Virus record (IMG/VR): IMGVR_UViG_3300045988_025432
Coordinates: 1-33,013 of that record
DNA length: 33,013 nt
Direction: 5' to 3' (one strand)
Origin: a virus
Shown: positions 2,915-32,645 of the stretch, piece by piece
Layout of the letters: each line of letters starts with the position of its first letter
Position numbering within the stretch: the first letter of the stretch is position 1
Translations under genes and position numbers: made by a program
Notes under the pieces: generated by a model
The model's input: the letters and a program-made list of their open reading frames with translations, nothing else
Told to the model about the DNA's origin: nothing
Database searches by the model: none

Positions 2915-3450
2915 AAACAAAATTGATAGGTAACTTCATCCGAAAATCAAGAAACGAAGATGGAAACCTAGAAATAACATTTGAATTGACTGATAAAACA
3001 TATGAATATTACGCTCAGGCCCTCAAAAAAGGGGCATATAGTGTAGTTATAGATTCGGTTAAAGATTTACGTACACTTAAACAAAATAACCTTATGTGGG
3101 GCTTAATTGGAGATATATGTAGCAATGAAAACGCAAGCCATAGAGACACGTGGGATATGTACTGCGAGTTTTTGAGAATGGCAAAGCAAAAATATACATA
3201 TGTTTTAGTCGTTAAAGAAGGCTACGACGATTTATGTGTTGCGCATGGAGTTAGAGCAGTACAGGCGTTAGGTACAGAAACAAGAGAAAACGGAAAAGAA
3301 TTTATAAAATGTAGAGTATTTATAGGTAGTTCACGGATGAGCACAAAAGAAATGGGAAATTTAATTGATTGCATATTATATTATGCGGAACAATTAGGAA
3401 TCAACACTAAATACTACTTAGATGAAGGAATAAAAGGGGAAGAAAAATAA
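2911..3450 (+). CDS. ninB: NinB/Orf-family recombination mediator
   Basis: RTLKQNNLMWGLIGDICSN and IGSSRMSTKEMGNLIDCILYYAEQLGI align with lambda Orf (RSLDQNRKLWACLGDVSRQ and GQSTSRMRVGEFAELLELIQAFGTERGV, from memory). TTG start in a TTGA overlap with the upstream stop. Confidence 0.7.
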   Translation: MKTKLIGNFIRKSRNEDGNLEITFELTDKTYEYYAQALKKGAYSVVIDSVKDLRTLKQNNLMWGLIGDICSNENASHRDTWDMYCEFLRMAKQKYTYVLVVKEGYDDLCVAHGVRAVQALGTETRENGKEFIKCRVFIGSSRMSTKEMGNLIDCILYYAEQLGINTKYYLDEGIKGEEK

Positions 3451-3828: not shown

Positions 3829-4500
3829 ATAGCAGAACTAAAGAAATCGTATTACGCAATAATACCTGCAGAAGTTCGATATGATGAAGAATTGCCACCA
3901 AACGCAAAACTATTGTATGGAGAAATTACATCATTGTGTAATGAAAAAGGATATTGTTGGGCAACAAATCAATATTTCGCAGATTTATATAAAGTTTCTA
4001 AAATTACAGTAAGTAGATGGATTAGCATTCTAAACAAAAAAGGATATATTGCCGTAGAAACACTGTATAAAGAAGGAACAAAAGAAATTATCGGAAGGCA
4101 TTTATATATTGTAAATACCCCTATTAACAAAAATGTTAAAGATAATAATAAAGTTATTAATACTAAAATTAATAATAAATTAAAAGTAAGTAAACATAAA
4201 TACGGAGAATATCAACACGTTCTATTAACAGATAAAGAACACACACAACTATTAGATTTATATGGTGATTCATTAGATGAGCATATAAAGATATTAGATG
4301 AGTATATTGAAACGAGTGGAAAGAAATACAAGAACTATTCACTAGTAATTCAGAAGTGGGTACATGATGAATGGACTAAAAGAAATAAAGATAAGCCTAT
4401 CACACTTGATTCAAAGTTTTATGCAGAGCAAAACACAAAAACAGATAAAGAAGTACAGGATGAATTTAATAGGCTTAGAGCACAACTGTTTGGTGCATAA
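3829..4500 (+). CDS. Phage replication protein / replisome organizer (N-terminal winged-helix), predicted ATA start
   Basis: AKLLYGEITSLCNEKGYCWATNQYFADLYKVSKITVSRWISILNKKGYI is the typical HTH replication-organizer N-domain. GGAGG 3816-3820 overlaps the track's GTG 3820 and lies 8 nt before in-frame ATA 3829 (context AATAGCA). Confidence 0.6.
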   Translation: MAELKKSYYAIIPAEVRYDEELPPNAKLLYGEITSLCNEKGYCWATNQYFADLYKVSKITVSRWISILNKKGYIAVETLYKEGTKEIIGRHLYIVNTPINKNVKDNNKVINTKINNKLKVSKHKYGEYQHVLLTDKEHTQLLDLYGDSLDEHIKILDEYIETSGKKYKNYSLVIQKWVHDEWTKRNKDKPITLDSKFYAEQNTKTDKEVQDEFNRLRAQLFGA

Positions 4501-7560: not shown

Positions 7561-7755
7561 ATAGAAATGAATTATGAAGAAAGGATTAAAGAGTTAATTT
7601 CTAAAAACAATAGACTAGGAAGGAAGAATATTGAATTGGAGCAGACTTTAAAAGAAAGAAACGCAACAATTCATACTCAAGCTAAAGAAATCAAGAAATT
7701 AAGAAGTGAAGTTGGCGAATTAAAGGATAGATTGTATAAGGTATACAGTTCATGA
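7561..7755 (+). CDS. Small coiled-coil protein, predicted ATA start
   Basis: GGAGG 7548-7552 overlaps the track's GTG 7552. In-frame ATA 7561 (context TCAATAGAA) is 8 nt downstream; the next ATG (7567) is 14 nt away. Confidence 0.5.
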   Translation: MEMNYEERIKELISKNNRLGRKNIELEQTLKERNATIHTQAKEIKKLRSEVGELKDRLYKVYSS

Positions 7756-8078
7756 GCACATATGAAGATATTAAGAGACACTTCTTGTGTGAATGCCAAT
7801 CGTACACATATTATGAGCAAAAGATAGCAGAGCTACAAAGGGATGAAGCAATTTATCCTTTAAAAGCCGAGCTATTCTTAGCTCATGCAGATTATGCAAG
7901 AAGAATGAACTATGTAAAAGACAAATTAAGCCAACTTGATGATACAACTCGAGCCATGATTGAGTATAGATATATAAAGGGATTCAGTGCAGAAAAAACA
8001 TCTAATATTGTAGGTTATGCACGAGAAGAGATTCCAAGAAAAATAAATAAGAACTTAAAGAAAGTGCTCACATTGTGA
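7752..8078 (+). CDS. ArpU/RinA-like late transcriptional regulator (sigma-70 region-4-type HTH)
   Basis: ATGA overlap start. C-terminal RAMIEYRYIKGFSAEKTSNIVGYAREEIPRKINKNLKKV is a sigma region-4-like HTH. It sits at the early/late boundary ahead of the packaging genes. Confidence 0.5.
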   Translation: MSTYEDIKRHFLCECQSYTYYEQKIAELQRDEAIYPLKAELFLAHADYARRMNYVKDKLSQLDDTTRAMIEYRYIKGFSAEKTSNIVGYAREEIPRKINKNLKKVLTL

Positions 8079-8087
8079 GCATTTTTT
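8065..8087 (+). terminator. Rho-independent terminator
   Basis: TGCTCAC (8065-8071) pairs with GTGAGCA (8075-8081), 3-nt loop, then TTTTTT 8082-8087. The stop codon of the upstream gene lies inside the stem. Confidence 0.65.
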
Positions 8088-8104: not shown

Positions 8105-8180
8105 AGCAGGATAGAGCAGTAGTAGCTCACTAGTCTTATTAGCTAGAGGTCGAATGGTGCAAATCCTTCTCCTGCAACCA
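8105..8180 (+). tRNA. Initiator-like tRNA with anticodon UAU (decodes AUA), encoded CCA
   Basis: Hand-folded cloverleaf. Acceptor AGCAGGA/TCCTGCA: A1xA72 mismatch, then 6 Watson-Crick pairs including G2:C71 and C3:G70. T8 A9. D stem GAGC/GCTC (A11:T24), D loop AGTAGTA. Anticodon stem CTAGT/GCTAG, loop CTTATTA (anticodon TAT 8137-8139, T at position 37). Variable loop AGGTC. T arm GAA(T)GG/CCTTC with one bulged T, T loop TGCAAAT. A73 plus CCA. Blocks GAGCAG, GTAGCTC, AGGTCG, CAAATCC and GCAACCA match E. coli and B. subtilis tRNA-fMet as I recall them. Atypical points: no GG in the D loop, G at position 55, pyrimidine at 37, and only one of the three initiator G:C pairs in the anticodon stem. 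Confidence 0.7.
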
Positions 8181-8262: not shown

Positions 8263-8287
8263 ACCGAGCGTTTGTCTCGGTTCTTTT
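8263..8287 (+). terminator. Rho-independent terminator downstream of the tRNA
   Basis: ACCGAG (8263-8268) pairs with CTCGGT (8276-8281), 7-nt loop, T-rich tail TTCTTTT. Confidence 0.5.
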
Positions 8288-8571: not shown

Positions 8572-9044
8572 ATGGAGATTATTAGATTAAAAATCAATGA
8601 CATTACACCTTACGAAAAGAACGCAAAGATTCATACTGAAGCACAAATTGAACAAATTAAGAAATCTATTCAAGAATTCGGCATGAATGACCCAATCGCA
8701 GTATGGGGGGGAACAATACCATAGTTGAAGGACATGGGCGATTAGAAGCCTTAAAGCAATTAGGCTATACAGAAGTTGACTGTATCAGACTAGACCATTT
8801 AACAGATGAAGAAAGAAAAGCTTATACACTTGCTCACAATAAAATCAATATGAATACAGGATTCGACATTGATTTATTGGATGAAGAATTAGACAGTATA
8901 GAAGATATTGATATGGAAGATTTCGGATTTGAAAGCGTAGAAAATATTGATTTGAATAGTTTTTTTGAAGATTCAAATTCAACAAGTGAAAAAGAACCGA
9001 AAAAAATTCAGTGTCCTCATTGTGGTGAATGGTTTGAACAATGA
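8572..9044 (+). CDS. ParB-like nuclease-domain protein with C-terminal zinc ribbon, split by a frameshift in a G7 tract (8705-8711)
   Basis: ATG 8572 after AAGGGGGA. IRLKINDITPYEKNAKIHTEAQIEQIKKSIQEFGMNDPIAVW continues as GGNNTIVEGHGRLEALKQLGYTEVDCIRLDHLTDEERKAYTLAHN only in the -1 frame (track ORFs 8524-8724 and 8703-9044). One extra G would restore a single ORF. Ends with CPHCGEWF. Confidence 0.65.
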
Positions 9045-12427: not shown

Positions 12428-13831
12428 ATAGAAACATCTAACACACGTAGACCGTGGTTTCAGAATTACCTAAACGATAGAGGGTATTATGTAGACACAA
12501 ACGCAATTGAAATTATTGAATTGTGCAACAAGTGGTACACGAATACCGAAACAGAATTTCATACGGCATACACCTTGAATAACGAGGAATACACGCTAGA
12601 TAAAACAGACTTTGCAAAGCGTTTATGTGAGGATGACGCAAACCTAATTGAAATCCTAGATATAAACGCTACAGAGGATAGCGTTACAAATGACATTATT
12701 TCAGACATTCTAACAAAGAATAGATTTGATGTAATGTACAGAAAACAGGTTGAGCAAATGTCTGCAAATGGTACTGTAGGAGCTTATGTAACGGTATCAA
12801 ATGCCGAGATTTATGAAGATGGTACATTCAGTGGAGGAGAAATCAGAATCAATTATTGTGATTCAATGAATATCCTTCCATTAACTGTTATAAATGATGA
12901 AATTGTGGAAGTTGCTTTCGTTGGAGTAAATTATGAGAAACTAAAGAAAGTATATGTGATGGTCATGTTCTTAAAAGGACAAGACGAAAGATATATTGCA
13001 GAAACACATTACTTCAAAGACACAGGCGAGGAAATAAAAGAACGTGCTCAGATTGTTCAACTAGATGTAGTTAAACCCTTTGCAATTATGAGAAATGCAA
13101 AGGTAAACAACTTACAAATGCAAGGGTACGGCTTACCTAAAATTTGGAGTGCAATCGCTCCTTTAAAGACAATTGACCTAACAATGACAATGTGGAATCG
13201 AGATTTATTGAAGTCAGATAAAATCGTTCTTGTGAATGAAGCATTAATGCAGAAAGACGAGAATGGAAAGATTAAGATGAATCCACAAATGAAAAAGATT
13301 TTTGTTCAGTTAGGTAGAGACAAGTTACCGGAAGAAAAAGCTTTATGGCAAGAATACAATCCAACAGTTAGAACACAAGAAGTTGTTCAATCACTAGAAA
13401 CTGCTTTAAGCATCTTATCAATGATGTTTGGATTCGGCACAAAGAAATACACGTTTGAAAGTGGAAGAATTGTGACGGCTACAGAATACATTGGTGAGAA
13501 TCAAGACGCAATGAAGGAAGTAAACTCACAACGTAAAGAATCTACGGCTTATATTCAAGATATCATTCAAGCAATAGCATACTTCTATGAATTAACACAA
13601 GGCAGAAAGCTTAATATCAATTCATTAGATATTGCAATTGATTATGATGATACATATATAGAGGATAAGCAAAGCACTGCACAAGCGTTAAGAAATGACG
13701 CACTTACATTTGATATTCCAAGATTGAAAATTATGTACTTTATGAAACAATACGGATTTACAGAAGAAGAAGCAACGGAATTATTAAACGAAGAAATTCA
13801 AGATGATGGAGAGGGGGATGACGAAGAATAG
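12428..13831 (+). CDS. Portal protein (SPP1 gp6-like), predicted ATA start
   Basis: Size and position fit a portal. The frame opens at 12425, right after the terL stop. The 31 codons before the track's TTG 12521 read as coding (ETSNTRRPWFQNYLNDRGYYVDTNAIEIIE) and contain no ATG/GTG/TTG. AAGGAGG 12415-12421 lies 6 nt before ATA 12428. Confidence 0.8.
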   Translation: METSNTRRPWFQNYLNDRGYYVDTNAIEIIELCNKWYTNTETEFHTAYTLNNEEYTLDKTDFAKRLCEDDANLIEILDINATEDSVTNDIISDILTKNRFDVMYRKQVEQMSANGTVGAYVTVSNAEIYEDGTFSGGEIRINYCDSMNILPLTVINDEIVEVAFVGVNYEKLKKVYVMVMFLKGQDERYIAETHYFKDTGEEIKERAQIVQLDVVKPFAIMRNAKVNNLQMQGYGLPKIWSAIAPLKTIDLTMTMWNRDLLKSDKIVLVNEALMQKDENGKIKMNPQMKKIFVQLGRDKLPEEKALWQEYNPTVRTQEVVQSLETALSILSMMFGFGTKKYTFESGRIVTATEYIGENQDAMKEVNSQRKESTAYIQDIIQAIAYFYELTQGRKLNINSLDIAIDYDDTYIEDKQSTAQALRNDALTFDIPRLKIMYFMKQYGFTEEEATELLNEEIQDDGEGDDEE

Positions 13832-14634
13832 CAACTACATATTTTCCATTCGTCTCAAGAAATGGCGATAGATTAGTATTATATGACGCTTTCAGAAGAT
13901 TGTTCTCAAGCTACTTTACAAATGGCGTGTTCGTAGATGATTCTAGTTCAGACCATTTAAGAGTTGAGAAAGCTCAAGGCTTAACCTTAACAGTTAAAGC
14001 AGGACGAGCAAACATTAATGGAGCGTTCTATTGGCAGAAGGATGATGAAACCATCACACTAGAAAAGAATAGCGCAACTAAAAGCTACAACATCATTCTT
14101 AGATTGAATGATAATGACGCATATAGAAATATCACATTAGTGGCTAGTGATATCAATGATGGAATTACAAGAAATGATTCTATTTACGATTTAGTACTAG
14201 CTACAGTCACGGTTACAGGCAATGCAAGCGAAGTTAAAGGCTCAGATATTACAGATACAAGATTAGATTCTACACGTTGTGGAGCAGTTACAAGCGCTAT
14301 TAAGAGCGTACAATCGTTGGATTTGTTCACTCAAGTAACGGAGTTATTCAAGGAAATTAAGACCCAAAATGAATCTGAAATGAATGCAAATAGAACAGAA
14401 TTCAATGATTGGTTTGAAACTGTAAAAGATACGTTAGACGCAAATACGGCAGGAAAGTTATCCAATAGAATTTCAAACATTGAAAAGATGATTATGGAGA
14501 ATCATTTCACTACGATTCTATTAACAGAAGATGGAACACTAGTAGATGAGAATGGTCATGAAATTTTAGCCGATTGGGCGTATGAAGTTGATGAAGGTGA
14601 AGTAGGTAAAGATTGGACTTACAAGGTGAAATAG
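13828..14634 (+). CDS. Fibre/receptor-binding-module structural protein, predicted ATA start
   Basis: The N-terminus (M)ATTYFPFVSRNGDRLVLYDAFRRLFSSYFTNGVF is a motif I recall from Firmicute phage fibre/baseplate proteins. There are 24 codons without a canonical start before TTG 13900. ATA 13828 overlaps the portal stop (ATAG) and lies 9 nt after GGAGAGGGGGA. Confidence 0.6.
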   Translation: MATTYFPFVSRNGDRLVLYDAFRRLFSSYFTNGVFVDDSSSDHLRVEKAQGLTLTVKAGRANINGAFYWQKDDETITLEKNSATKSYNIILRLNDNDAYRNITLVASDINDGITRNDSIYDLVLATVTVTGNASEVKGSDITDTRLDSTRCGAVTSAIKSVQSLDLFTQVTELFKEIKTQNESEMNANRTEFNDWFETVKDTLDANTAGKLSNRISNIEKMIMENHFTTILLTEDGTLVDENGHEILADWAYEVDEGEVGKDWTYKVK

Positions 14635-20270: not shown

Positions 20271-21140
20271 ATAGCGAATGAAATTGCATTAGCTAAAACG
20301 TATGTTTCAAATCTTGATGAGGTATATAAATTAGCTTCAGTAACGGGTGATTTAAATGCAGACGCTACAATGGTACGAGCCGGAGCAAACGCAAAAGAAA
20401 TTATCTATCCACAAATTTCTGTTAAAGGTTTAGGAAACTACGATAGAAATAGCGGATATACATCAAACTCAGTCAAATTGGAATGGAAGACTGCTACATT
20501 TGATTACGATAGAGGAACAAAAATTGCAGTAGATACACAAGACAATGCAGAATCAATGAATATTGCGTTCGGTAGAGCAGGAGCAGAATTAATGCGTACA
20601 AAGGTAGCACCGGAAGCAGACGCTTACACGTTCGCTAAAATTGCCGGTACAACAGGAATCACAAAAGTTTCAGAAGATTACGCAAGTGCGGAAGAATTTT
20701 TGAGTGCATTATTAAAAGCCGTTACTCAAATGGATGAGGATGAAGTTCCTAGTGAACAACGTATCTTGTATGCTACGCCTACATTATTAAATGGAGTCAA
20801 GGCATTAGATACTTACAAATCACGTGAAGCTTTACAAGGATTCGCAAAGGTAGTTCCTGTACCTGCTAGTCGTTTCTATACAAAGATTAAATTGTTGAGT
20901 GGAGCAGATACAGAAGCAGAAGGTGGATATACTAAAGCAGAGGATGGGCACGTTATCAACTTCTTGATTGTTCATAAACCTTCTGTTATGAAATGGGATA
21001 AACACACTGTTTCAAATGTGATTCCTGCAAGCAATAACATTGAATCAGATTCAGATGTATTGAAATATCGTAAATATGGAATCGTTGATGTATACGCAAA
21101 TAAGGTGGCAGGTATCTACTTATCTGCTAGTGCGAAGTAA
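20271..21140 (+). CDS. Major capsid protein, predicted ATA start
   Basis: Position after the scaffold gene, and NYDRNSGY..DYDRGTKIAVDTQDNAESMNIAFGRAGAELMRTKVAPEADA is capsid-like. The frame opens at 20268. The 33 codons ((M)ANEIALAKTYVSNLDEVYKLASVTGDLNADAT) before ATG 20370 contain no canonical start. AAGGAGG 20256-20262 lies 8 nt before ATA 20271. Confidence 0.8.
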   Translation: MANEIALAKTYVSNLDEVYKLASVTGDLNADATMVRAGANAKEIIYPQISVKGLGNYDRNSGYTSNSVKLEWKTATFDYDRGTKIAVDTQDNAESMNIAFGRAGAELMRTKVAPEADAYTFAKIAGTTGITKVSEDYASAEEFLSALLKAVTQMDEDEVPSEQRILYATPTLLNGVKALDTYKSREALQGFAKVVPVPASRFYTKIKLLSGADTEAEGGYTKAEDGHVINFLIVHKPSVMKWDKHTVSNVIPASNNIESDSDVLKYRKYGIVDVYANKVAGIYLSASAK

Positions 21141-21642: not shown

Positions 21643-22058
21643 TAGGATTTTTTGAAGATTCAATCACACTTGTAAATCACTACTATGATACATTGACGAG
21701 AGAAGATAGGTTTCAAGCTTCTATCCTTGATAAATGTATGTGGAGACAATCAACTGTTAGAACTGCAAACGGTAATATTCTGAGCATAGCCACATCCACA
21801 AATATTACCATTCTATATCGTGAAGGATATGTTGAACCTTACGCATATGCAAAGCTTTCAAATGATGAGAAGCAAAAACATTTCACATTGAATACAGATA
21901 AAACAGATTTCGTATTCTTTGGAGAAGTGAAAGAAGATTTATCCACAATTAAAGCAATAAACGAAGCTAAAAAGAAATACAAATGGACAACGATTCAAAG
22001 CGTAACAGATTGTACGAATGTAGATATGTTGAAGCATTGGGAGGTTGTCGGTCAATAG
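21639..22058 (+). CDS. Head closure/stopper-type protein (assigned by position)
   Basis: ATG 21639 in an ATGA overlap with the upstream stop. Synteny-based call. Confidence 0.45.
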   Translation: MIGFFEDSITLVNHYYDTLTREDRFQASILDKCMWRQSTVRTANGNILSIATSTNITILYREGYVEPYAYAKLSNDEKQKHFTLNTDKTDFVFFGEVKEDLSTIKAINEAKKKYKWTTIQSVTDCTNVDMLKHWEVVGQ

Positions 22059-22417
22059 GTATCAAAGTTAAGCTTGATGTTAAATCACTTCAAGAATTTA
22101 AACAATCAAGAGGACTTGAAGAACGTGGACGAGTTCAACAAATGATTGATTCTGAAGTCATTAGGCTTATGACCCCCTATACGCCTAGAGACACCGGAGC
22201 ATTAATTAACTCTGCTACACGATTAACACAAATTGGTAGTGGATTAGTAAAGCAAGGTGGACCAAGTGCACCTTATGCAAGACGTTGGTATTACAACAAA
22301 GAGAATGCTCATTTTGTAGGTGGTAAAACAGACCATTGGTTTGAAAAAGCTATGCGAAATGGTGGAGAAGAAGCAATCTTGAAAAAAGCACAACAAATGA
22401 TAGGAGACGGAGAATGA
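22055..22417 (+). CDS. HK97 gp10-like head-tail joining protein, predicted ATA start
   Basis: MTPYTPRDTGALINS and APYARRWYYN fit the HK97 gp10 family pattern. ATA 22055 overlaps the upstream stop (ATAG) 10 nt after GGGAGG. The alternative ATG 21983 would need a 76-nt overlap and has no SD. Confidence 0.55.
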   Translation: MGIKVKLDVKSLQEFKQSRGLEERGRVQQMIDSEVIRLMTPYTPRDTGALINSATRLTQIGSGLVKQGGPSAPYARRWYYNKENAHFVGGKTDHWFEKAMRNGGEEAILKKAQQMIGDGE

Positions 22418-22833
22418 CAGTATCAAAAGCATTAATCCAATGGTTATATGGCTATGGAAATATACAGATAGATGAACGTATTGAAACGGATGTTTTAGCG
22501 CAACAGGCTATCTCTTATGCGTTGTATAAAGAACCTAACGCAATTGTAGATACATACATTGACGGCTCTCAAATGCGTACTGAATATTACACGTTTCTAG
22601 CTCGTAGGAATACACAAATTGAAACCGAAAGGCAAGACAACAATTCTTTCTTAGAAGAATTAGGAGAATGGATTGACGAAAAGAATTTAAACGGAGAATT
22701 ACCACAACTAGACGGAAACAGATATTGTGAGGATGTTTCCGTTTCAAGTGGCTTATATCTATACACAAATGAGGATAGTCAAGCAGTATATGCCTTGACT
22801 ATTCAAATCAAATACAGAAAGGAGCTTAATTAA
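22414..22833 (+). CDS. Tail completion/terminator-type protein (assigned by position)
   Basis: ATGA overlap start; directly precedes the major tail gene. Confidence 0.45.
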   Translation: MTVSKALIQWLYGYGNIQIDERIETDVLAQQAISYALYKEPNAIVDTYIDGSQMRTEYYTFLARRNTQIETERQDNNSFLEELGEWIDEKNLNGELPQLDGNRYCEDVSVSSGLYLYTNEDSQAVYALTIQIKYRKELN

Positions 22834-23339
22834 TAGCAACTCAAGGGACCGAAGTAAGTACAGGACAGACAGTCAAGAAGTATATGATTGGATTGTTCTT
22901 AGAAATGGGAACAGGTTATAAGCGAATTAAGAAGTCTACAACTTTAGATATTTCATTTAACAGTGAAACTGAAACTTATGATTTTATCGCAGATAAGAAC
23001 CCAACAGAATCATTGAAAAGTTATTCACCTCAGATTTCGCAAGATTTAACAATGATTAAAGGTGAAGATGATTTTGAATATATTTATGAACAAATGATGA
23101 AATCCGTTCCTAACAATGAAGAAGTAAATACAAAATCTTTAATTGTATTCATGTTTGACGGAGATAAAACAAAAGGCTATAAAGCGTGGGAAGTTGACTC
23201 TAAATTAATCTTTGACACATTGAGTGGCGTTGATTCAAAAATCAACTTTAACATTAACTTTGCAAGCGATATTCGTGTTGGTATTGCAAAGGTAGCAGAT
23301 GGAACAGTGACATTCACAGAAGGTACATCAGAAGTATAA
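22833..23339 (+). CDS. Major tail (tube) protein, predicted ATA start
   Basis: Position upstream of the chaperone pair and tape measure gene. The frame opens at 22830. ATA 22833 (context TTAATTAATAGCA, the same as the capsid start) lies 8 nt after AAGGAG. The first ATG (22884) has no SD. Confidence 0.65.
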   Translation: MATQGTEVSTGQTVKKYMIGLFLEMGTGYKRIKKSTTLDISFNSETETYDFIADKNPTESLKSYSPQISQDLTMIKGEDDFEYIYEQMMKSVPNNEEVNTKSLIVFMFDGDKTKGYKAWEVDSKLIFDTLSGVDSKINFNINFASDIRVGIAKVADGTVTFTEGTSEV

Positions 23340-23357: not shown

Positions 23358-23720
23358 ATGAATAGAATTACGTATGAAGGGAAACAGTATGAAATCCCAC
23401 CTAAAACAATTGAAGTTTTAAAAGCAGAGGACGCTTGTAACGCATTTCACGCTACACATGAAGAAGCATATCGAGCAAAATTCGACTATCTGAAAACAGT
23501 ATTAACAGATGAACAAATTGAAAGCATGTTAGGAAGCGTAGATATTGAACAAGTAGATTTAATGGAAGTGTTGTATATTGTGAATTTAATTGATGAAGAA
23601 TATTCAAGAAGAACAAATGAGCAAACAATGAAGAAAGCTAGAACATTAATGAACGATAAAGCAATCAAAAGCTTAATTGATGCAAGCAATGCAGTTTCAA
23701 AGATTACGGAAAAGAAATGA
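23358..23720 (+). CDS. Tail assembly chaperone (assigned by position)
   Basis: 120-aa acidic protein between the tail tube and tape measure genes. Confidence 0.5.
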   Translation: MNRITYEGKQYEIPPKTIEVLKAEDACNAFHATHEEAYRAKFDYLKTVLTDEQIESMLGSVDIEQVDLMEVLYIVNLIDEEYSRRTNEQTMKKARTLMNDKAIKSLIDASNAVSKITEKK

Positions 23721-24280
23721 TTGATTTACGGACAAAAGGCTTGCCAAATAGCATACAGTCGCTAGATGGCGAGCCTATTTTATTAAATACAGATTTTCGG
23801 TTGTGGATTCGCTTCTATGAAGAATTTGAAAGATTCAATAATCATGTTATTGATGAAATAGATTGTTCTTATTTATTCGTGGATGAACCGCCTATCATAG
23901 ACAAGCATATTTTAAAAGAGTTAGAACGATTCCTATATAATCCTTCTAGCACGCCTAGAAGTGATTCTACAGGTGCTAAGACATTAGACTATGTACAAGA
24001 TGGTGAATATATTTATTCGGCTTTTATGCAACTTTACGGCATTGATTTAACGGAATGTGATATGCATTGGCACAAATTCTTAGCACTAGCCAATAATATA
24101 GTTGGTGATTCAACTTTATGGGGATATGCAAAGAGCGTTAGAGGATATGAAAAACCTTCAAAGAATGATACGCAAGATAAGGCATATCAAAGAGCAAAAG
24201 AAGCGTGGTCTTTCCCAATCGAGTTGACAAAAAGGGAGCAAGAAATGAAAGATGAATTTGATTCATATTTTGATGTTTAG
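23717..24280 (+). CDS. Gp15-like tail assembly protein
   Basis: ATGA overlap start. Position immediately upstream of the tape measure gene, Trp/Phe-rich pattern reminiscent of the Phage_Gp15 family. Confidence 0.45.
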   Translation: MIDLRTKGLPNSIQSLDGEPILLNTDFRLWIRFYEEFERFNNHVIDEIDCSYLFVDEPPIIDKHILKELERFLYNPSSTPRSDSTGAKTLDYVQDGEYIYSAFMQLYGIDLTECDMHWHKFLALANNIVGDSTLWGYAKSVRGYEKPSKNDTQDKAYQRAKEAWSFPIELTKREQEMKDEFDSYFDV

Positions 24281-24300
24281 AAAAGGAGGTGGCAAATTGA

Positions 24301-26880
24301 ATATCAGATGGAACATTAAAGTTTGAAACAAAGATAGATACAAGTGGTCTAGAGAATGGTATTAAATCTGTAAAGGTTGTATCAAGTGAAGCCACAAATG
24401 CTATTAAAGAAACTTCAAAAGCGATTGATAAGCTAGGTTCTGATGGTTCAAAAGCACCACCAAAGATTAAAGATAAACTTAAAGATTTAAACGAAGAGCA
24501 AAAGAATACACAGACAGAAACGCAAGAAACAGGTTCTAAATTTGATGTATTTAAGCAAGTAGGTAACAGTGCATTAGAATCAATTCAAGGTGGATTTGAT
24601 GGACTATTAGGAAAGATTCAGAATATTAGTCCGGAAGCTAGTGCAATCACTGAAACCTTAACAGGATTAGGCGTAGGAGGTGTTGTTGGTGTTACTGCCG
24701 TAGCCGGAGCTATTGGTGGAATGGCACTAGCAATTAAAACAGGTGTTAATCAAGCTATTGAATTAGATGACGCTATGGCTAAATTCCAAGCTCAGACAGG
24801 TGCTTCAAGTAATGAAATGAGCAAATTTAAAAACATTGCTCGTGATGTTTGGTCTAATAATTTCGGTGAAGATGTTTCAGATGTTGCCGATATGATGGGC
24901 AGAGTCAAGCAACAAATGCAAGGCATAAGTGATGTTGATTTAAAGGATGTTACTGAGGATTTATTGACATTAAGAGACACATTCGGAATGGACGAGAACG
25001 AAACATTAAGAGGTGCTCAACAATTAATGAAGCAGTTCGGAATTAGTTCTAAAGAAGCTTTTGACCTTATGGCTACAGGTGCTCAGAATGGTTTAAACAA
25101 ATCAGATGAGTTAGGCGACAACATTTCAGAATACTCCGGTAAATTCAAGCAAGCAGGATATTCGGCAGAAGAATACTTCCAATTAATGCAGAATGGATTA
25201 GATGGTGGAGCTTATAACCTTGATAAAGTAAATGACGCAATCAACGAAGTTACCACAAGGTTAGTCGATGGAACTATTGAAGGAGCTTTAGATAGTTTTG
25301 ATACCAAGACGCAAGATGTCTTTAAAGCTTGGCAAGAAGGAAGAGCAACTCAGAAAGATGTTGTGAATGCGATTGTTGAGGATATTTCTAAGACAACAAA
25401 TGAGCAAGAAAAGTTGAATAAATCGGCAACGGCTTTCGGTACAATGGGAGAAGATTTCAACGCCGGATTCATTCAGTCCTTAACGACAGTAGGGAATAAA
25501 TATAAAGATGTAGAAGGGGCAATGGATAAAGTCAAAGAAATTGCAAATGGTGGCTTAAAGAACGCTTTAAGTGGCTTAGGGCGTGCATTTCTTGATTCAT
25601 TTACTCCAATAGGCGAACTTATTACCCCTATTCTTGCAGGTATCATTGGATTGATTACAGTAGCTATACAAGGTATTCAACAAGGATTTGCTAAAGTTGG
25701 TGATGTAATTTCAAGTGTATTAAGTAAGATTGATACAAGTGGAATTACAGAATTAACAAGTCAAGTTTCCGAAGTGTTAGCACCTTCCTTTGATAAAGTA
25801 AAAGACGCAATCGACAAAATGAAAGTTGCACTTGAACCTATTGCAAAAGATATATTAAGCAAGATTATTGATGTAATTCAAAACATTGTGAATCAAGCTC
25901 AAAAGATTTTAACAGTGGTAGGTCCACCGATACTTTCTGTTTTAAAGAAAATCATTTCAACGGTTTCGGAATTTATGCCTTTAATCACATCTATATTGAC
26001 TATTGTCGGAAGTGTTGTAAGTGGAGTTATTTCATTTATAAATATGGTAGTCACATATACCGGAACGGCAATCGCAACGGCAATGGGATTTATCATGCCT
26101 ATTGTTCAAATCATAGCTACAATCGTAGCGAATATTTGGTCTGTAATATTAACGGTTGCTCAGAATATTTGGAGCAAAGTTAGCGAAGTAGTTACTGCCA
26201 TTATTGGATTCGTAAGCAATTTGTTTAAAACAGTTTCGGACATCATAAACAATATTTGGAGCAAGATTCAAGACGCAATGAATAGAGTCGGCGATAAGGT
26301 AAAAGGTGTTATTGATAATATCAATAAATATTTCAATAATGTTAAGAGTACTGTTTCTGATGTATTCAATGGCATTTGGTCTAAGGTCCAAGGTGTGATG
26401 GACAATGTAGGAAATAAAATTTCAAATGTTCTACAAGGAATACAGAATTCATGGAGCGGTTTAAAAGGATTTGTAAGTGGTGTATTTGGTGGAATTGAAG
26501 GAGCAGTTAGTTCATTAGTTGGAAGTGTAAAAGGAATGGTAAATGGTGTTATCGGTGGTATTAACGGTGCAATCGGTATCATTAATAAAATCCCGGGAGT
26601 TCACATTGGAAGGATTCCAAGACTAGAGCGTGGCGGTGTATTGAAGCGTGGTCAAATCGGTTTATTAGAAGGTAATGGAGCAGAAGCAGTCGTACCATTA
26701 GAAAAAAATAAAGCGTGGATTCGTGCCGTAGCTAAAGATATGGTCCAAATCATGCCTAGTGTAACAACAAATAACAACGGACAGACTATCAACTTCTACA
26801 ATAAAGTTCAAAGTCCGGATGAAATCGCTAGAATGTTACGTATGCAAGCAAGATATGGATATGGAGGTGTAGTTCAATAG
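24301..26880 (+). CDS. Tape measure protein, predicted ATA start
   Basis: Length, a Gly/Ala/Val-rich TM-like core, and repeated NIWSK motifs. The frame opens exactly at ATA 24301 (preceded by TGA). The next 140 codons ((M)SDGTLKFETKIDTSGLENGIK.., a typical TMP N-terminus) contain no in-frame ATG/GTG/TTG. The AAGGAGGTGG SD is 8-11 nt upstream. Confidence 0.85.
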   Translation: MSDGTLKFETKIDTSGLENGIKSVKVVSSEATNAIKETSKAIDKLGSDGSKAPPKIKDKLKDLNEEQKNTQTETQETGSKFDVFKQVGNSALESIQGGFDGLLGKIQNISPEASAITETLTGLGVGGVVGVTAVAGAIGGMALAIKTGVNQAIELDDAMAKFQAQTGASSNEMSKFKNIARDVWSNNFGEDVSDVADMMGRVKQQMQGISDVDLKDVTEDLLTLRDTFGMDENETLRGAQQLMKQFGISSKEAFDLMATGAQNGLNKSDELGDNISEYSGKFKQAGYSAEEYFQLMQNGLDGGAYNLDKVNDAINEVTTRLVDGTIEGALDSFDTKTQDVFKAWQEGRATQKDVVNAIVEDISKTTNEQEKLNKSATAFGTMGEDFNAGFIQSLTTVGNKYKDVEGAMDKVKEIANGGLKNALSGLGRAFLDSFTPIGELITPILAGIIGLITVAIQGIQQGFAKVGDVISSVLSKIDTSGITELTSQVSEVLAPSFDKVKDAIDKMKVALEPIAKDILSKIIDVIQNIVNQAQKILTVVGPPILSVLKKIISTVSEFMPLITSILTIVGSVVSGVISFINMVVTYTGTAIATAMGFIMPIVQIIATIVANIWSVILTVAQNIWSKVSEVVTAIIGFVSNLFKTVSDIINNIWSKIQDAMNRVGDKVKGVIDNINKYFNNVKSTVSDVFNGIWSKVQGVMDNVGNKISNVLQGIQNSWSGLKGFVSGVFGGIEGAVSSLVGSVKGMVNGVIGGINGAIGIINKIPGVHIGRIPRLERGGVLKRGQIGLLEGNGAEAVVPLEKNKAWIRAVAKDMVQIMPSVTTNNNGQTINFYNKVQSPDEIARMLRMQARYGYGGVVQ

Positions 26881-27746
26881 ATATCAATAAAGTAAGAGTT
26901 ATTGTCCGTAGGGATGATGGCAAAGAATTTGAAATTGATAACAAAAGATGGAGAATACCGTCTAGTGATGGCTTAGATGGATTTGATTATGTAGCACCTT
27001 CATATACTACCCAAGACAATGCATTCGGAAATGGTGCTAGATTAATTGGTTCACGTATTCCAACGAAAGAAAGAAGCGTGAAAGCTACCTTTAAAGGCTC
27101 GCTAGAAGAAAAAAGAGAAGAAAGGGAGAAGCTACGGCGCTTCTTCCAATATTCTCATATATTTGATGTGATAGTTGAGTACATGGGAGAAAAGAAATAT
27201 TGTAGAGGTCGTTTATATGCGTATAGCTTGCCTACAGTTAACATCTACAAAGATTTAGAGCTTAACTTTACAATTCTATGCACACAACCTTTATTGCTTT
27301 CATTTGATGATTTTGCAAGGAATATCGCAGAAATTGGTGAAGGTTTAGCGTTCAACTTTGAAATACCGGAGACAGGTGTAAACTTTGGAACATTTACATT
27401 CGCTAGAGAAATCTATATTGATAATCAAGGTGATACAGAAACATACTGTAGAGCCGTTATTGAAGCGTTTGGAGAAGTAACGAATCCAAAACTATTTAAC
27501 AAGGATAAATATATTCGTGTATTAGATACACTACACAATGGTGATGTATTAGAAATTGATTTAGTTTCTGAGCCTATTTCGATTAAAAAGAATGGTGTGA
27601 ATTGTATCGGCAAAGTTGACAGAACCTCATCATTCAATGATATGACGATTCAGTTAGGTGAGAATATCATAGGATATACGGCAGACAATGGAGATACGAA
27701 TCTAGCTTGCACGGTTTATTACAATGAAAGGTATTTAGGTTTATAG
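26877..27746 (+). CDS. Distal tail protein (Dit-like), predicted ATA start
   Basis: Follows the TMP gene. 67 coding-looking codons ((M)DINKVRVIVRRDDGKEFEIDNKRWRIPSSDGLDGFD..) precede the track's GTG 27078 with no canonical start. ATA 26877 overlaps the TMP stop (ATAG) 9 nt after GGAGG. Confidence 0.7.
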   Translation: MDINKVRVIVRRDDGKEFEIDNKRWRIPSSDGLDGFDYVAPSYTTQDNAFGNGARLIGSRIPTKERSVKATFKGSLEEKREEREKLRRFFQYSHIFDVIVEYMGEKKYCRGRLYAYSLPTVNIYKDLELNFTILCTQPLLLSFDDFARNIAEIGEGLAFNFEIPETGVNFGTFTFAREIYIDNQGDTETYCRAVIEAFGEVTNPKLFNKDKYIRVLDTLHNGDVLEIDLVSEPISIKKNGVNCIGKVDRTSSFNDMTIQLGENIIGYTADNGDTNLACTVYYNERYLGL

Positions 27747-28773: not shown

Positions 28774-29274
28774 ATAGAAAAGAAAAATGGAGGATTTAAA
28801 CAAATAGCAAGAAGTATGTTTTTTCTAGATAAGATTAATGCAATGTGTGGTGTTGCCGTAGCCGTATTAACATACGTATTAGGTGAACATTGGTATTTAT
28901 TCGCATTCTTCTTATTTATGAATGTAGTGGATTATATTACAGGGTGCATGAAATCGGCGATTAATCACAAAATCAATAGCAATAAAGGATGGATTGGAGT
29001 CCTTAAAAAGCTAGGCTATTGGATTATGATTGTAGTTGCGTTCACATTCAGTGCATTCTTGGTTGAGATTGGAAAAATGCTAGGAATTGATTTCCATGTA
29101 TCTACATTGTTAGGTTGGTTTGTGTTAGCTTCGCTATGTATTAATGAATCTCGTAGTGTTATGGAGAATTTATTACAATGTGGTTACAATGTACCAAAAG
29201 CATTAACTAAAGGTTTGGAAGTAGCGGATAAAATCGTTAACGAAGACAATGACGAATCAAGTACCTTGGAATAA
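28774..29274 (+). CDS. Holin (phage_holin_4-type), predicted ATA start
   Basis: Several TM helices plus GWIGVLKKLGYW and the INESRSVMENL motif typical of this holin family. AGGAG 28761-28765 overlaps the track's GTG 28765 and lies 8 nt before in-frame ATA 28774 (context TTAATAGAA). Confidence 0.7.
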   Translation: MEKKNGGFKQIARSMFFLDKINAMCGVAVAVLTYVLGEHWYLFAFFLFMNVVDYITGCMKSAINHKINSNKGWIGVLKKLGYWIMIVVAFTFSAFLVEIGKMLGIDFHVSTLLGWFVLASLCINESRSVMENLLQCGYNVPKALTKGLEVADKIVNEDNDESSTLE

Positions 29275-31883: not shown

Positions 31884-32645
31884 ATAGATTATCAAAGCTT
31901 TAAAAAAGCCGTATTAGGCAAAGCATTCGATTTAGACCATGCATATGGTGCTCAGTGTTGGGATGGAGGCATGAAATATTTAATCGATTTAGGCTACAAA
32001 GCTATCCATTGTACAACAACTGGCTATGTAAAAGATATTTGGAATAATCGAAAGACAAATGGAATTTTAAACTATTGTAATGAGGTCTCAATTATGCAAC
32101 CTGGTGACATTGCAGTATTCAAGGAAGTAGCAGGATGGACACCGTATTCACACATTGCGATTTTCGATTCAGACATTGATGGTAAGTTCGGTTGGTTCTT
32201 AGGACAGAACCAAGGTGGAAAAGGTGGAGCATTCAATTTAATTAAATTGCCTTATTATGCAACCTTTGATACTGCGTTTAGACCTAAATGTTTCGCAAAT
32301 ACAGGAGCAGTTAAACCAAGTATTCCACAACCTGTAGAAGCAATTGACCAAATCTTGCACGCAGGAAGCTACGTAACATCCGTACAAATGAAGATTGGCA
32401 ATCAAGGATTGAAACAAATCAATGGCGATTTATGCGCATACCTTGCACAATTAGGTGGTTGGTTTCCAATTCGTTTAGTCGACAAAGTTCGCTATTCTGA
32501 TGGATATAATGATAACGTATTGCATACAACAAATGCCGTTGTCTATGTTACAAGAATTCGTGTTGATGAAGTCAACGTACAAAAGAATCTTGCGAAAATC
32601 GGTGGAATTTGGGTAAATTGTGACCCATTAATTGAAGTAGCATAA
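31884..32645 (+). CDS. CHAP-domain endolysin with a C-terminal cell-wall-binding domain, predicted ATA start
   Basis: DLDHAYGAQCWDGG (catalytic Cys) and YSHIAIFDS (His) are CHAP motifs. AGGAGG 31871-31876 lies 7 nt before in-frame ATA 31884 (TTAATAGAT). The track's TTG 31860 lies inside the -10 hexamer and upstream of the SD. Confidence 0.8.
   Translation: MDYQSFKKAVLGKAFDLDHAYGAQCWDGGMKYLIDLGYKAIHCTTTGYVKDIWNNRKTNGILNYCNEVSIMQPGDIAVFKEVAGWTPYSHIAIFDSDIDGKFGWFLGQNQGGKGGAFNLIKLPYYATFDTAFRPKCFANTGAVKPSIPQPVEAIDQILHAGSYVTSVQMKIGNQGLKQINGDLCAYLAQLGGWFPIRLVDKVRYSDGYNDNVLHTTNAVVYVTRIRVDEVNVQKNLAKIGGIWVNCDPLIEVA

Follow-up and report, generated by a model that had tools for sequence, protein, structure and literature searches.

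Bacterial initiator tRNAs carry G2:C71, C3:G70, and A73 as determinants of formylation, a mismatch at 1:72 disfavors their binding by EF-Tu, and initiator tRNAs with mutant anticodons start translation at the complementary codons. Suppressor tRNAs encoded by phages recode stop codons (TAG to Gln and TGA to Trp) and have been proposed to gate late genes. The literature also holds engineered orthogonal initiators, AUA initiation in mitochondria, sporadic AUA and AUU starts in bacteria, and studies of phage tRNAs, but a search of full-text literature, which was not exhaustive, returned no natural phage or bacterial initiator-type tRNA with an anticodon other than CAU that is paired with matching start codons. 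Here we describe a 33,013-nucleotide stretch of viral DNA (IMG/VR virus record IMGVR_UViG_3300045988_025432, positions 1 to 33,013; the whole stretch is referred to as the window), in which the gene for the tape measure protein (TMP) appears to start at ATA and which codes for a tRNA with an initiator-type body and the anticodon UAU that probably serves such starts.

Start codon of the tape measure gene

The TMP gene lies between a Gp15-like gene (23717-24280), which stops at TAG 24278-24280, and an SPP1_Dit gene (26877-27746), and its product contains a PhageMin_Tail domain (Pfam PF10145, E = 7.3e-24) at residues 185 to 380. A first-pass annotation, made from the sequence alone, reported that its open reading frame (ORF) opens exactly at an ATA after the TGA at 24298-24300 and then runs for 140 codons without a canonical start; re-reading and an ORF scan agree, and the first in-frame ATG, GTG, or TTG is the ATG at 24721. 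The chance of such a run is ∼0.003 at the phage's own frequency of these codons (4.06% per codon) and ∼0.0009 at the frequency in the rest of the TMP gene (4.9%). The motif that the same annotation placed just upstream is AAGGAGGTGG, a Shine-Dalgarno (SD) sequence whose GGAGG ends 11 nucleotides (nt) before the ATA at 24301 and 7 nt before an out-of-frame TTG (24297-24299). The TTG is the short dead end that it was taken for, with nine sense codons followed by TGA at 24324-24326. The TMP frame also contains a GTG (24289-24291), which overlaps the SD and lies on the far side of the TGA from the ATA.

A megablast search of the TMP region against a phage collection gave no match, and tblastn with the TMP gave hundreds of matches annotated as tape measure, all to the conserved core from about residue 145 onward, so that comparison of the N-termini required metagenomic relatives. 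These are 40 distinct public contigs containing the junction, from Holdemanella-type prophages and several sources. The codon at the TMP start is ATA in 39 of them and ATG in one (L001), and the string TTGAATA is identical in all except L001, with ATG for ATA, and L002 (TTGGATA), in which G for A at -1 turns the TGA into TGG. A sequencing error at the TGA/ATA junction, which had been named as a possible refutation of the noncanonical start, is excluded by the recurrence of the identical junction in 40 independent contigs.

Patterns of substitution among the relatives indicate that the 140-codon leader is coding and under purifying selection. Variable sites at codon positions 1, 2, and 3 number 2/2/13 in codons 1 to 20 and 26/18/83 in codons 21 to 140, and codons 1 to 20 show 52 synonymous versus 21 nonsynonymous differences and no stops. 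No relative has a stop in the leader frame, whereas the other two frames contain stops and nearly only nonsynonymous changes. Synonymous changes (TCA/TCG and GAT/GAC) are present already at codons 2 and 3 and are nonsynonymous in the frame of the TTG, which places the beginning of translation in the TMP frame at codon 2 or immediately before it. The ORF lists and public gene calls do give a TMP of 719 amino acids (aa) here, from ATG 24721, and of 839 aa in most relatives; that the 140 codons are untranslated, or that the locus reflects a sequencing error or a pseudogene, has nevertheless a negligible probability given the selection on codons 1 to 140, an N-terminal motif common to distant TMPs, and the presence of the same junction in all 40 contigs.

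A protein search gave more than 100 TMPs at 92 to 96% identity from Holdemanella assemblies and human-gut metagenomes. Gene callers begin most close TMPs at the ATG of codon 21, which explains why most database TMPs (839 aa) lack the first 20 residues; in P0003 the call begins at the position of the ATA, with MSDGTLKF, and P0009 reads MEHW-ISDG. Codon 21 (24361-24363) is ATT in the window, whereas most relatives have ATG and some have CTG. This ATT was considered as a start and rejected, its SD being weak (-7.7 kcal/mol) and codons 1 to 20 being under selection.

The position of the initiating methionine in homologues coincides with the ATA. An exhaustive HMMER search with TMP residues 1 to 200 aligned residues 2 to 5 of distant TMPs with query residues 2 to 3; their N-termini include MADGTLKFDTSID, MSDGRVEYEV, MGYDGSLKFDT, and MANDGTIAFD, compared with I-SDGTLKFETKID in the window, and in those that begin MADGTLKFDT or MSDGRVEY, residue 2 is matched to query residue 2. 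The N-terminus is thus as typical of TMPs as the first-pass annotation held it to be, distant TMPs beginning M-[A/S]-DG-T-L-KF where the window reads I-SDGTLKF. At the homologous position the sister phages L142 and L143 have ATG GCT GAY GGN (MADG[T/S]L), and the clade of the window has ATA (T/G)CN GAT GGA. Alignment to the TMPs of related phages had been put forward in advance as a check on the start, and in it residue 2 meets residue 2 and Met1 falls at the ATA; no canonical start was found in frame in codons 1 to 140, and the homologous Met1 position is ATA.

The TTG at 24297 has an ideal spacing from the GGAGG, and three lineages have kept a canonical start at -4 from the ATA of the TMP gene, as might be expected if ribosomes started there and then shifted +1 into the TMP frame within the first codons. 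Such a route is highly improbable, however, because the synonymous changes at codons 2 and 3 leave only the first codon as a place for the shift, slippery and stimulatory motifs are absent, the stop of the mini-ORF is gone in L027, the -4 ORF has only three codons in L141, and the other ten ATA-start genes of the window are without a canonical codon at -4. Initiation at GTG 24289 with TGA 24298 read as Trp, through leakiness or genetic code 4, would give MANW-ISDG and finds some support in L002, which has TGG for TGA (about positions 3001-3015) and in which the gene caller started at GTG (MEHWISDG), as well as in database fragments P0121 and P0140, which read MAKW and MANW. Yet the GTG overlaps the SD and leaves no spacer, it is replaced by GTT in L038, the TGA is kept in 39 of 40 relatives, homologues are without residues before M-[A/S]-DG, and the other genes of the window read intact in code 11 with TGA as a stop, and we regard this reading as exceedingly improbable. 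MANW is the product of the window's GTG GCA AAT TGA under genetic code 4, and some such variants may be code-4 gene calls.

Other candidate routes were tried and rejected. A chaperone-TMP fusion by frameshifting or readthrough, the second refutation named earlier, is ruled out by the two in-frame TGA codons that close the TMP frame and would have to be crossed (24271-24273 and 24298-24300) and by the lack of a heptameric slippery motif. A prfB-like +1 shift at GTT-TGA fails on the absence of that stop in L027, and reinitiation after the mini-ORF on the absence of a canonical start downstream. Stop-codon recoding is contradicted by + strand ORFs that tile intact under code 11 and by the anticodon, UAU, of the only tRNA in the window. 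The noncanonical start proposed in the first-pass annotation is borne out by the coding leader, by the homologous Met1 at the ATA, by the failure of these refutations, and by the phage tRNA, and the N-terminus of the TMP is very probably at ATA 24301.

A phage tRNA with anticodon UAU

The first-pass annotation alluded to a phage tRNA, and this corresponds to a UAU-anticodon tRNA at 8105-8180, upstream of the packaging and structural genes and between two terminator-like hairpins (8065-8081 and 8263-8281). ARAGORN at default settings reports no tRNA in the window, but with relaxed thresholds (-ps) it gives tRNA-Ile(tat) at 8105-8180, and the match to Rfam RF00005 at 8105-8177 scores 48.8 bits, above the gathering score of 29. 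The anticodon loop is CUUAUUA, such that UAU and U37 stand in place of the CAU anticodon and A37 of the initiator class. The body has an A1 x A72 mismatch, G2:C71, C3:G70, discriminator A73, and A11:U24, all features of initiators, and the D arm (GAGCAG..TAGCTC), variable loop (AGGTC), and 3' end (GCAACCA) are also like those of tRNA-fMet. In global alignments to annotated Escherichia coli tRNAs the best partner is the initiator metZ (tRNA-fMet), with a score of 24 for the window tRNA and 38 for a variant form, compared with 11 or less for the elongator Met, Ile2, Gln, and Leu tRNAs and 11 for ileX; a BLAST search of the phage tRNA against E. coli genomes gave no match.

Every one of the 31 relatives with a locus that spans the site carries the tRNA; nine sequence variants occur among them, all with the same anticodon loop. 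Two forms of the anticodon stem, CUAGU/GCUAG and UCGGU/GCCGA, are three compensatory double changes apart, and the variant arm, UCGGU-CUUAUUA-GCCGA, differs by only four changes from UCGGG-CUCAUAA-CCCGA, the arm of tRNA-fMet. In an alignment of 12 sequences, the cloverleaf pairs in 95% of cells and 10 pairs have double changes. Positions 1 and 72 are unpaired in 11 of the 12, with A, C, or U at base 1, while G2:C71, C3:G70, and A11:U24 are found in 12 of 12 and A73 is invariant. These features argue strongly that the phage tRNA descends from a bacterial initiator tRNA-fMet and is of initiator type rather than isoleucine type.

An alternative is that the host fMet-tRNA(CAU) starts at AUA 24301 by a third-position mismatch, making it a weak start that keeps expression low, and that the phage tRNA is an elongator for internal AUA codons; we consider this combination unlikely. 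The elongator role would be in keeping with the 97 internal AUA codons in the long ORFs of the phage, with the tRNA-Ile label given by ARAGORN, and with the absence from the tRNA of the full set of three G:C pairs of initiators. Conversely, the body is of initiator and not Ile type, lacking the paired 1:72, Y11:R24, and purine (t6A) 37 of an elongator tRNA-Ile(UAU), and the 1:72 mismatch and A11:U24 are kept in three diverged lineages despite a differing base 1. The other half of this alternative, a start by host fMet-tRNA, is weighed below with the remaining ATA starts.

Scans of IMG/VR, GTDB genomes, and metagenomes also revealed initiator-type UAU tRNAs in unrelated metagenomic contigs and in genomes that bear the names Arsenophonus, Collinsella, Terracidiphilus, Arthrobacter, and Roseobacter, as well as in a Thermoleophilia metagenome-assembled genome (L081/L099, which are high GC, L128/L139, L134/L137, L135, L127/L138, and L118-L123). 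These mostly have A37 with intact G:C pairs, and their loci are short, high GC, or not SD led. UAU initiator-type tRNAs may be a phenomenon wider than this phage clade.

A-ATA starts in the window and in related phages

Every + strand ORF of the window was checked for a strong anti-SD duplex and then for a start candidate (Table 1). The automatic pick gave 13 ATA starts, of which those at 8721 and 16649 were excluded since a canonical ATG serves those ORFs, and the resulting start table has 38 ATG, 11 credible ATA, 8 TTG, and 1 GTG. A scan of 567 leader codons in 44 long ORFs revealed six independent strong SDs, each pointing to an ATA, and nearly all other leader codons that score adjoin one of these ATAs or a canonical start close by. 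ATA starts thus appear, from sequence context and conservation, to be systematic in the phage, with about 10 genes besides the TMP gene using them.

Table 1. Positions in the window of the TMP start region, the phage tRNA, and other genes opening at ATA
Feature	Coordinates	Strand	Remarks
TMP gene	24301..26880	+	859 codons, stop-to-stop ORF; PF10145 match; purifying selection from codon 2
ATA, proposed TMP initiation codon	24301..24303	+	39 ATA and 1 ATG in 40 relatives; aligned with homologue Met1
In-frame TGA directly 5' of ATA	24298..24300	+	Closes TMP frame upstream; TGG only in L002
SD for TMP start, AAGGAGGTGG	24283..24292	+	Anti-SD duplex -17.3 kcal/mol
Out-of-frame mini-ORF	24297..24326	+	TTG + 8 codons + TGA (MNIRWNIKV); start at -4 relative to ATA
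Phage tRNA, anticodon UAU (8137-8139)	8105..8180	+	Initiator-type body, CCA encoded; Rfam, ARAGORN -ps
Replication initiation protein	3829..4500	+	SD + A-ATA-G; PHROG match from residue 4-6; ATA in 9/9 relatives
64-aa ORF	7561 (ATA)	+	Ambiguous start
Portal	12428..13831	+	SD + A-ATA-G; ATA in 38/38 relatives; first canonical start 31 codons downstream
Head protein	13828..14634	+	ATA overlaps portal stop as ATAG; ATA in 38/38 relatives
Major head protein	20271..21140	+	SD + A-ATA; ATA in 33/33 relatives
Minor head or connector	22055..22417	+	ATA overlaps upstream stop as ATAG; ATA in 36/36 relatives
Probable tail tube	22833..23339	+	SD + A-ATA-G; 36 ATA and 2 ATG in 38 relatives
Distal tail protein (Dit)	26877..27746	+	ATA overlaps TMP stop as ATAG, 9 nt after GGAGG; ATA in 36/36 relatives
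Holin	28774..29274	+	Probable SD + A-ATA-G; less certain, GTG 3 codons upstream
Endolysin	31884..32645	+	Probable SD + A-ATA-G; less certain, TTG 8 codons upstream without SD

As at the TMP gene, the leaders of these genes resemble coding sequence, with variable sites at codon positions 1/2/3 of 3/4/14 for the portal, 4/1/14 for the head protein, 6/3/19 for the capsid, 5/3/11 for the tail tube, and 12/5/45 for Dit, the last counted over the 67 codons that precede its first GTG. In the ATA-started proteins, PHROG matches start at residues 2 to 6, with phrog_422 aligning residues 2 to 288 of the major head protein to profile positions 2 to 294 of 297; the match of the tail tube to phrog_3099 begins at residue 11, upstream of the first ATG (codon 18). 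Portal homologues with a canonical Met reach within 0 to 6 residues of the ATA-defined N-terminus, and the conserved portal motif F..YLN.RGY would be lost if the first TTG were the start. The start of the minor head or connector gene at 22055 is less certain, as there is an upstream ATG (21983) in the same ORF. The ATA sites are kept in 31 to 38 of 31 to 38 relatives per site, and the sole replacement ever seen is ATG, in 2 of 38 relatives at the tail tube and 1 of 40 at the TMP gene.

The base at -1 is A at all 11 ATA starts of the window but at only 18 of the 38 ATG starts (one-sided hypergeometric p of ∼0.001); at the ATA sites at least 99% of relatives share this A, and it is found in L140 and L141 at 12 of 14 clear ATA starts. 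The base at +4 is G at 10 of the 11 sites, although at the capsid site it is C in most relatives, so that G at +4 is a preference and not a rule. Three of the starts overlap the stop of the preceding gene as ATAG (13828-13831, 22055-22058, and 26877-26880), the ATA equivalent of the common ATGA overlap; such overlaps may account for part of the preference for G. Position 37 of a tRNA, which is normally a purine, faces the -1 base of the mRNA, and A37 of tRNA-fMet has been proposed to pair with U at -1.

These observations bear on a start by host fMet-tRNA. AUA is a documented occasional start in bacteria and is workable in an optimized context (PMC5499595), and the TMP, being needed in few copies, might tolerate a weak start. 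The major capsid and tail tube proteins, however, are needed in hundreds of copies and share the ATA start; the homologous genes use ATG in phages whose examined stretch lacks a UAU tRNA; and the invariable A at -1 fits U37 rather than the A37 of fMet-tRNA.

The compared phages are examples from two groups of portal homologues at 47 to 62% identity, one with full N-termini and the other with truncated public calls. L141 (portal 62% identity; the same lineage as L130 and L101) has a tRNA with C1 x A72, as in L101, and the loop CUUAUUA, and ATA starts at the terS-like, portal, capsid, TMP (ATA GCT GAT GGA), Dit, and Tal genes; L130 and L101 share the UAU anticodon with U37 and the ATA starts of the portal, capsid, TMP, and Dit genes. 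L140, a prophage in an Amedibacillus sp. genome (portal 55% identity), has a tRNA with A1 x A72 and the same loop, and ATA starts at the terS-like, portal, capsid, TMP (ATA GCA GAT GGA), and Dit genes. By contrast, L143 (portal 47% identity) codes for a phage initiator tRNA with the anticodon CAU and three G:C pairs and uses ATG throughout, and L142 (portal 52% identity) has no tRNA within 10 kb and canonical starts throughout. The L143 tRNA is at 7652-7725, has C1 x A72, and lies between the minor capsid and scaffold genes.

The state of L143, with a CAU initiator tRNA and ATG starts, is plausibly ancestral. A likely history is that a phage initiator tRNA was present in the ancestor and that in one clade C34 changed to U, together with U37 and U31-G39, with the start codons following. 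The set of ATA genes varies, with Tal starting at ATA in L141 and at ATG in the window, and the homologue of the gene at 13828 starting at ATG in L140 and L141; ATG and ATA have thus kept interchanging, as expected if both are efficient when the tRNA is present.

A proposed initiation channel and known systems

In the mechanism that we propose, the TMP would be initiated independently at AUA 24301, positioned by the strong SD at 24283-24292, and the AUA would be read in the ribosomal P site by the phage tRNA, in which the anticodon UAU replaces CAU. The same tRNA would serve about 10 other genes with SD and A-AUA, from the replication initiator to the endolysin, such that much of the lytic program would be translated through a private initiation channel. 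The presence of an initiator-type body, a matching anticodon, and A-ATA starts in the same phages makes it likely that the tRNA acts as an initiator that decodes the AUA starts. U37 of the tRNA may pair with the invariant A at -1 in a four-base A-AUA:UAUU interaction, a fourth base pair that the two sequences make possible. Methionyl-tRNA synthetase depends on C34, for which reason the initiating amino acid is more likely to be Ile than Met; if so, the proteins of the A-AUA genes may begin with formyl-isoleucine and not formyl-methionine. On B. subtilis ribosomes, the unmodified UAU anticodon of a tRNA derived from tRNA1-Ile binds AUA strongly and AUG weakly (PMC3919564). With somewhat less confidence than for the action of the tRNA as an initiator, we favor the broader picture of a natural orthogonal initiation system in one clade of phages of the Erysipelotrichaceae (Holdemanella- and Amedibacillus-type prophages). 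In this picture an initiator tRNA was captured, its target codon changed from AUG to AUA, and replication, virion, and lysis genes came to use A-AUA starts, their translation thereby depending on the phage tRNA, or being tuned by it, instead of relying on the host initiator.

The TMP start differs in detail from the others. At 11 nt after GGAGG, its ATA lies farther from the SD than any other in the set (6 to 10 nt), and it alone has a canonical codon at -4, which is TTG in the window and ATG in L140 (16988-) and L141 (15516-). The resulting mini-ORF has 3 to 9 codons and is present in all three ATA lineages but absent from the ATG lineages L142 and L143; its stop is missing from L027, and what is conserved is therefore something other than a shift at this stop. 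We hypothesize that the -4 start is a decoy that diverts some of the initiating ribosomes and lowers the output of a protein needed in few copies.

Several observations weigh against this interpretation. About 38 genes of the same phage keep ATG starts, and the channel is not exclusive. Pairs 29:41, 30:40, and 31:39 of the window tRNA are A:U, G:C, and U-G, with only G30:C40 kept, and those of the variant and L141 tRNAs are G:C, G:C, and U-G, with two of the three initiator pairs, while three consecutive G:C pairs at these positions take part in recognition of the initiator by initiation factor 3 (IF3) and the P site (PMC2528185). The tRNA has further oddities (U37, G55, U19, and a bulged T stem), and a promoter scan around it showed no sigma-70-type promoter between the flanking hairpins. 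The three ATA lineages probably form one clade, so that the co-occurrence of UAU tRNA and ATA starts may go back to one event in evolution, and host is another possible confounder. Finally, host fMet-tRNA has some capacity to read AUA: an AUA mRNA performs about as well as an AUG mRNA in an optimized E. coli extract, and in vivo examples reach ∼7 to 15% (PMC5499595).

If confirmed, initiation by the phage tRNA would be the first natural case found of a virus that reassigns its own start signal with its own initiator tRNA, and an initiation-side counterpart of stop-codon recoding by phages. Phages could use it to gate the translation of the lytic program or to insulate it, for example from dependence on the host initiator pool, from the stringency of IF3, or from nucleases that target initiator tRNA, and it would provide synthetic biology with a ready-made orthogonal pair of initiator and start codon, already optimized by evolution, including a possible 4-bp A-AUA:UAUU interaction. 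Whatever the mechanism, public gene calls for an abundant family of gut phages are systematically truncated, with TMPs of 839 or 719 aa instead of 859, Dit of 222 instead of 289 aa, and a portal of 436 instead of 467 aa, the last in a cluster of 1406 member sequences.

Among known systems, bacterial tRNA-fMet is the best alignment partner of the phage tRNA and shares with it the 1:72 mismatch, G2:C71, C3:G70, A73, and A11:U24, but the phage tRNA has UAU and not CAU, U37 and not A37, and U-G at 31:39, and its family keeps one or two of the three G:C pairs and has altered T and D loops. Elongator tRNA-Ile(UAU), as in phage tRNA-Ile and the G34U suppressor of B. subtilis tRNA1-Ile (PMC3919564), likewise reads AUA and discriminates against AUG, whereas in its body 1:72 is paired, 11:24 is Y:R, and base 37 is a purine, none of which holds for the phage tRNA. 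Near-cognate AUA, AUU, and AUC starts by fMet-tRNA, such as infC AUU and the T4 rIIB AUA mutant (PMC5499595), also use an AUN codon after an SD, but they are isolated, usually weak or regulatory, and without a dedicated tRNA, whereas here many genes, those for the most abundant virion proteins among them, occur together with a matching tRNA.

The initiators engineered in E. coli with anticodons for amber or other non-AUG codons similarly move initiation to the complementary codon after an SD; they are laboratory constructs, whereas the phage tRNA is natural, virus encoded, conserved, and paired with about 11 native genes. In animal mitochondria, too, the initiating tRNA reads AUA start codons, although there a single tRNA-Met with a modified C34 reads both AUG and AUA under a reassigned code, and the phage clade instead has a second initiator-type tRNA, with U34, beside the normal one of the host. 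Stop-codon recoding by phages is similar in that a phage tRNA alters the decoding of mostly late genes and standard gene callers mis-annotate the products; it acts at termination and elongation, however, whereas the phage tRNA described here would act at initiation, and the genes of the window have no in-frame stops inside them.

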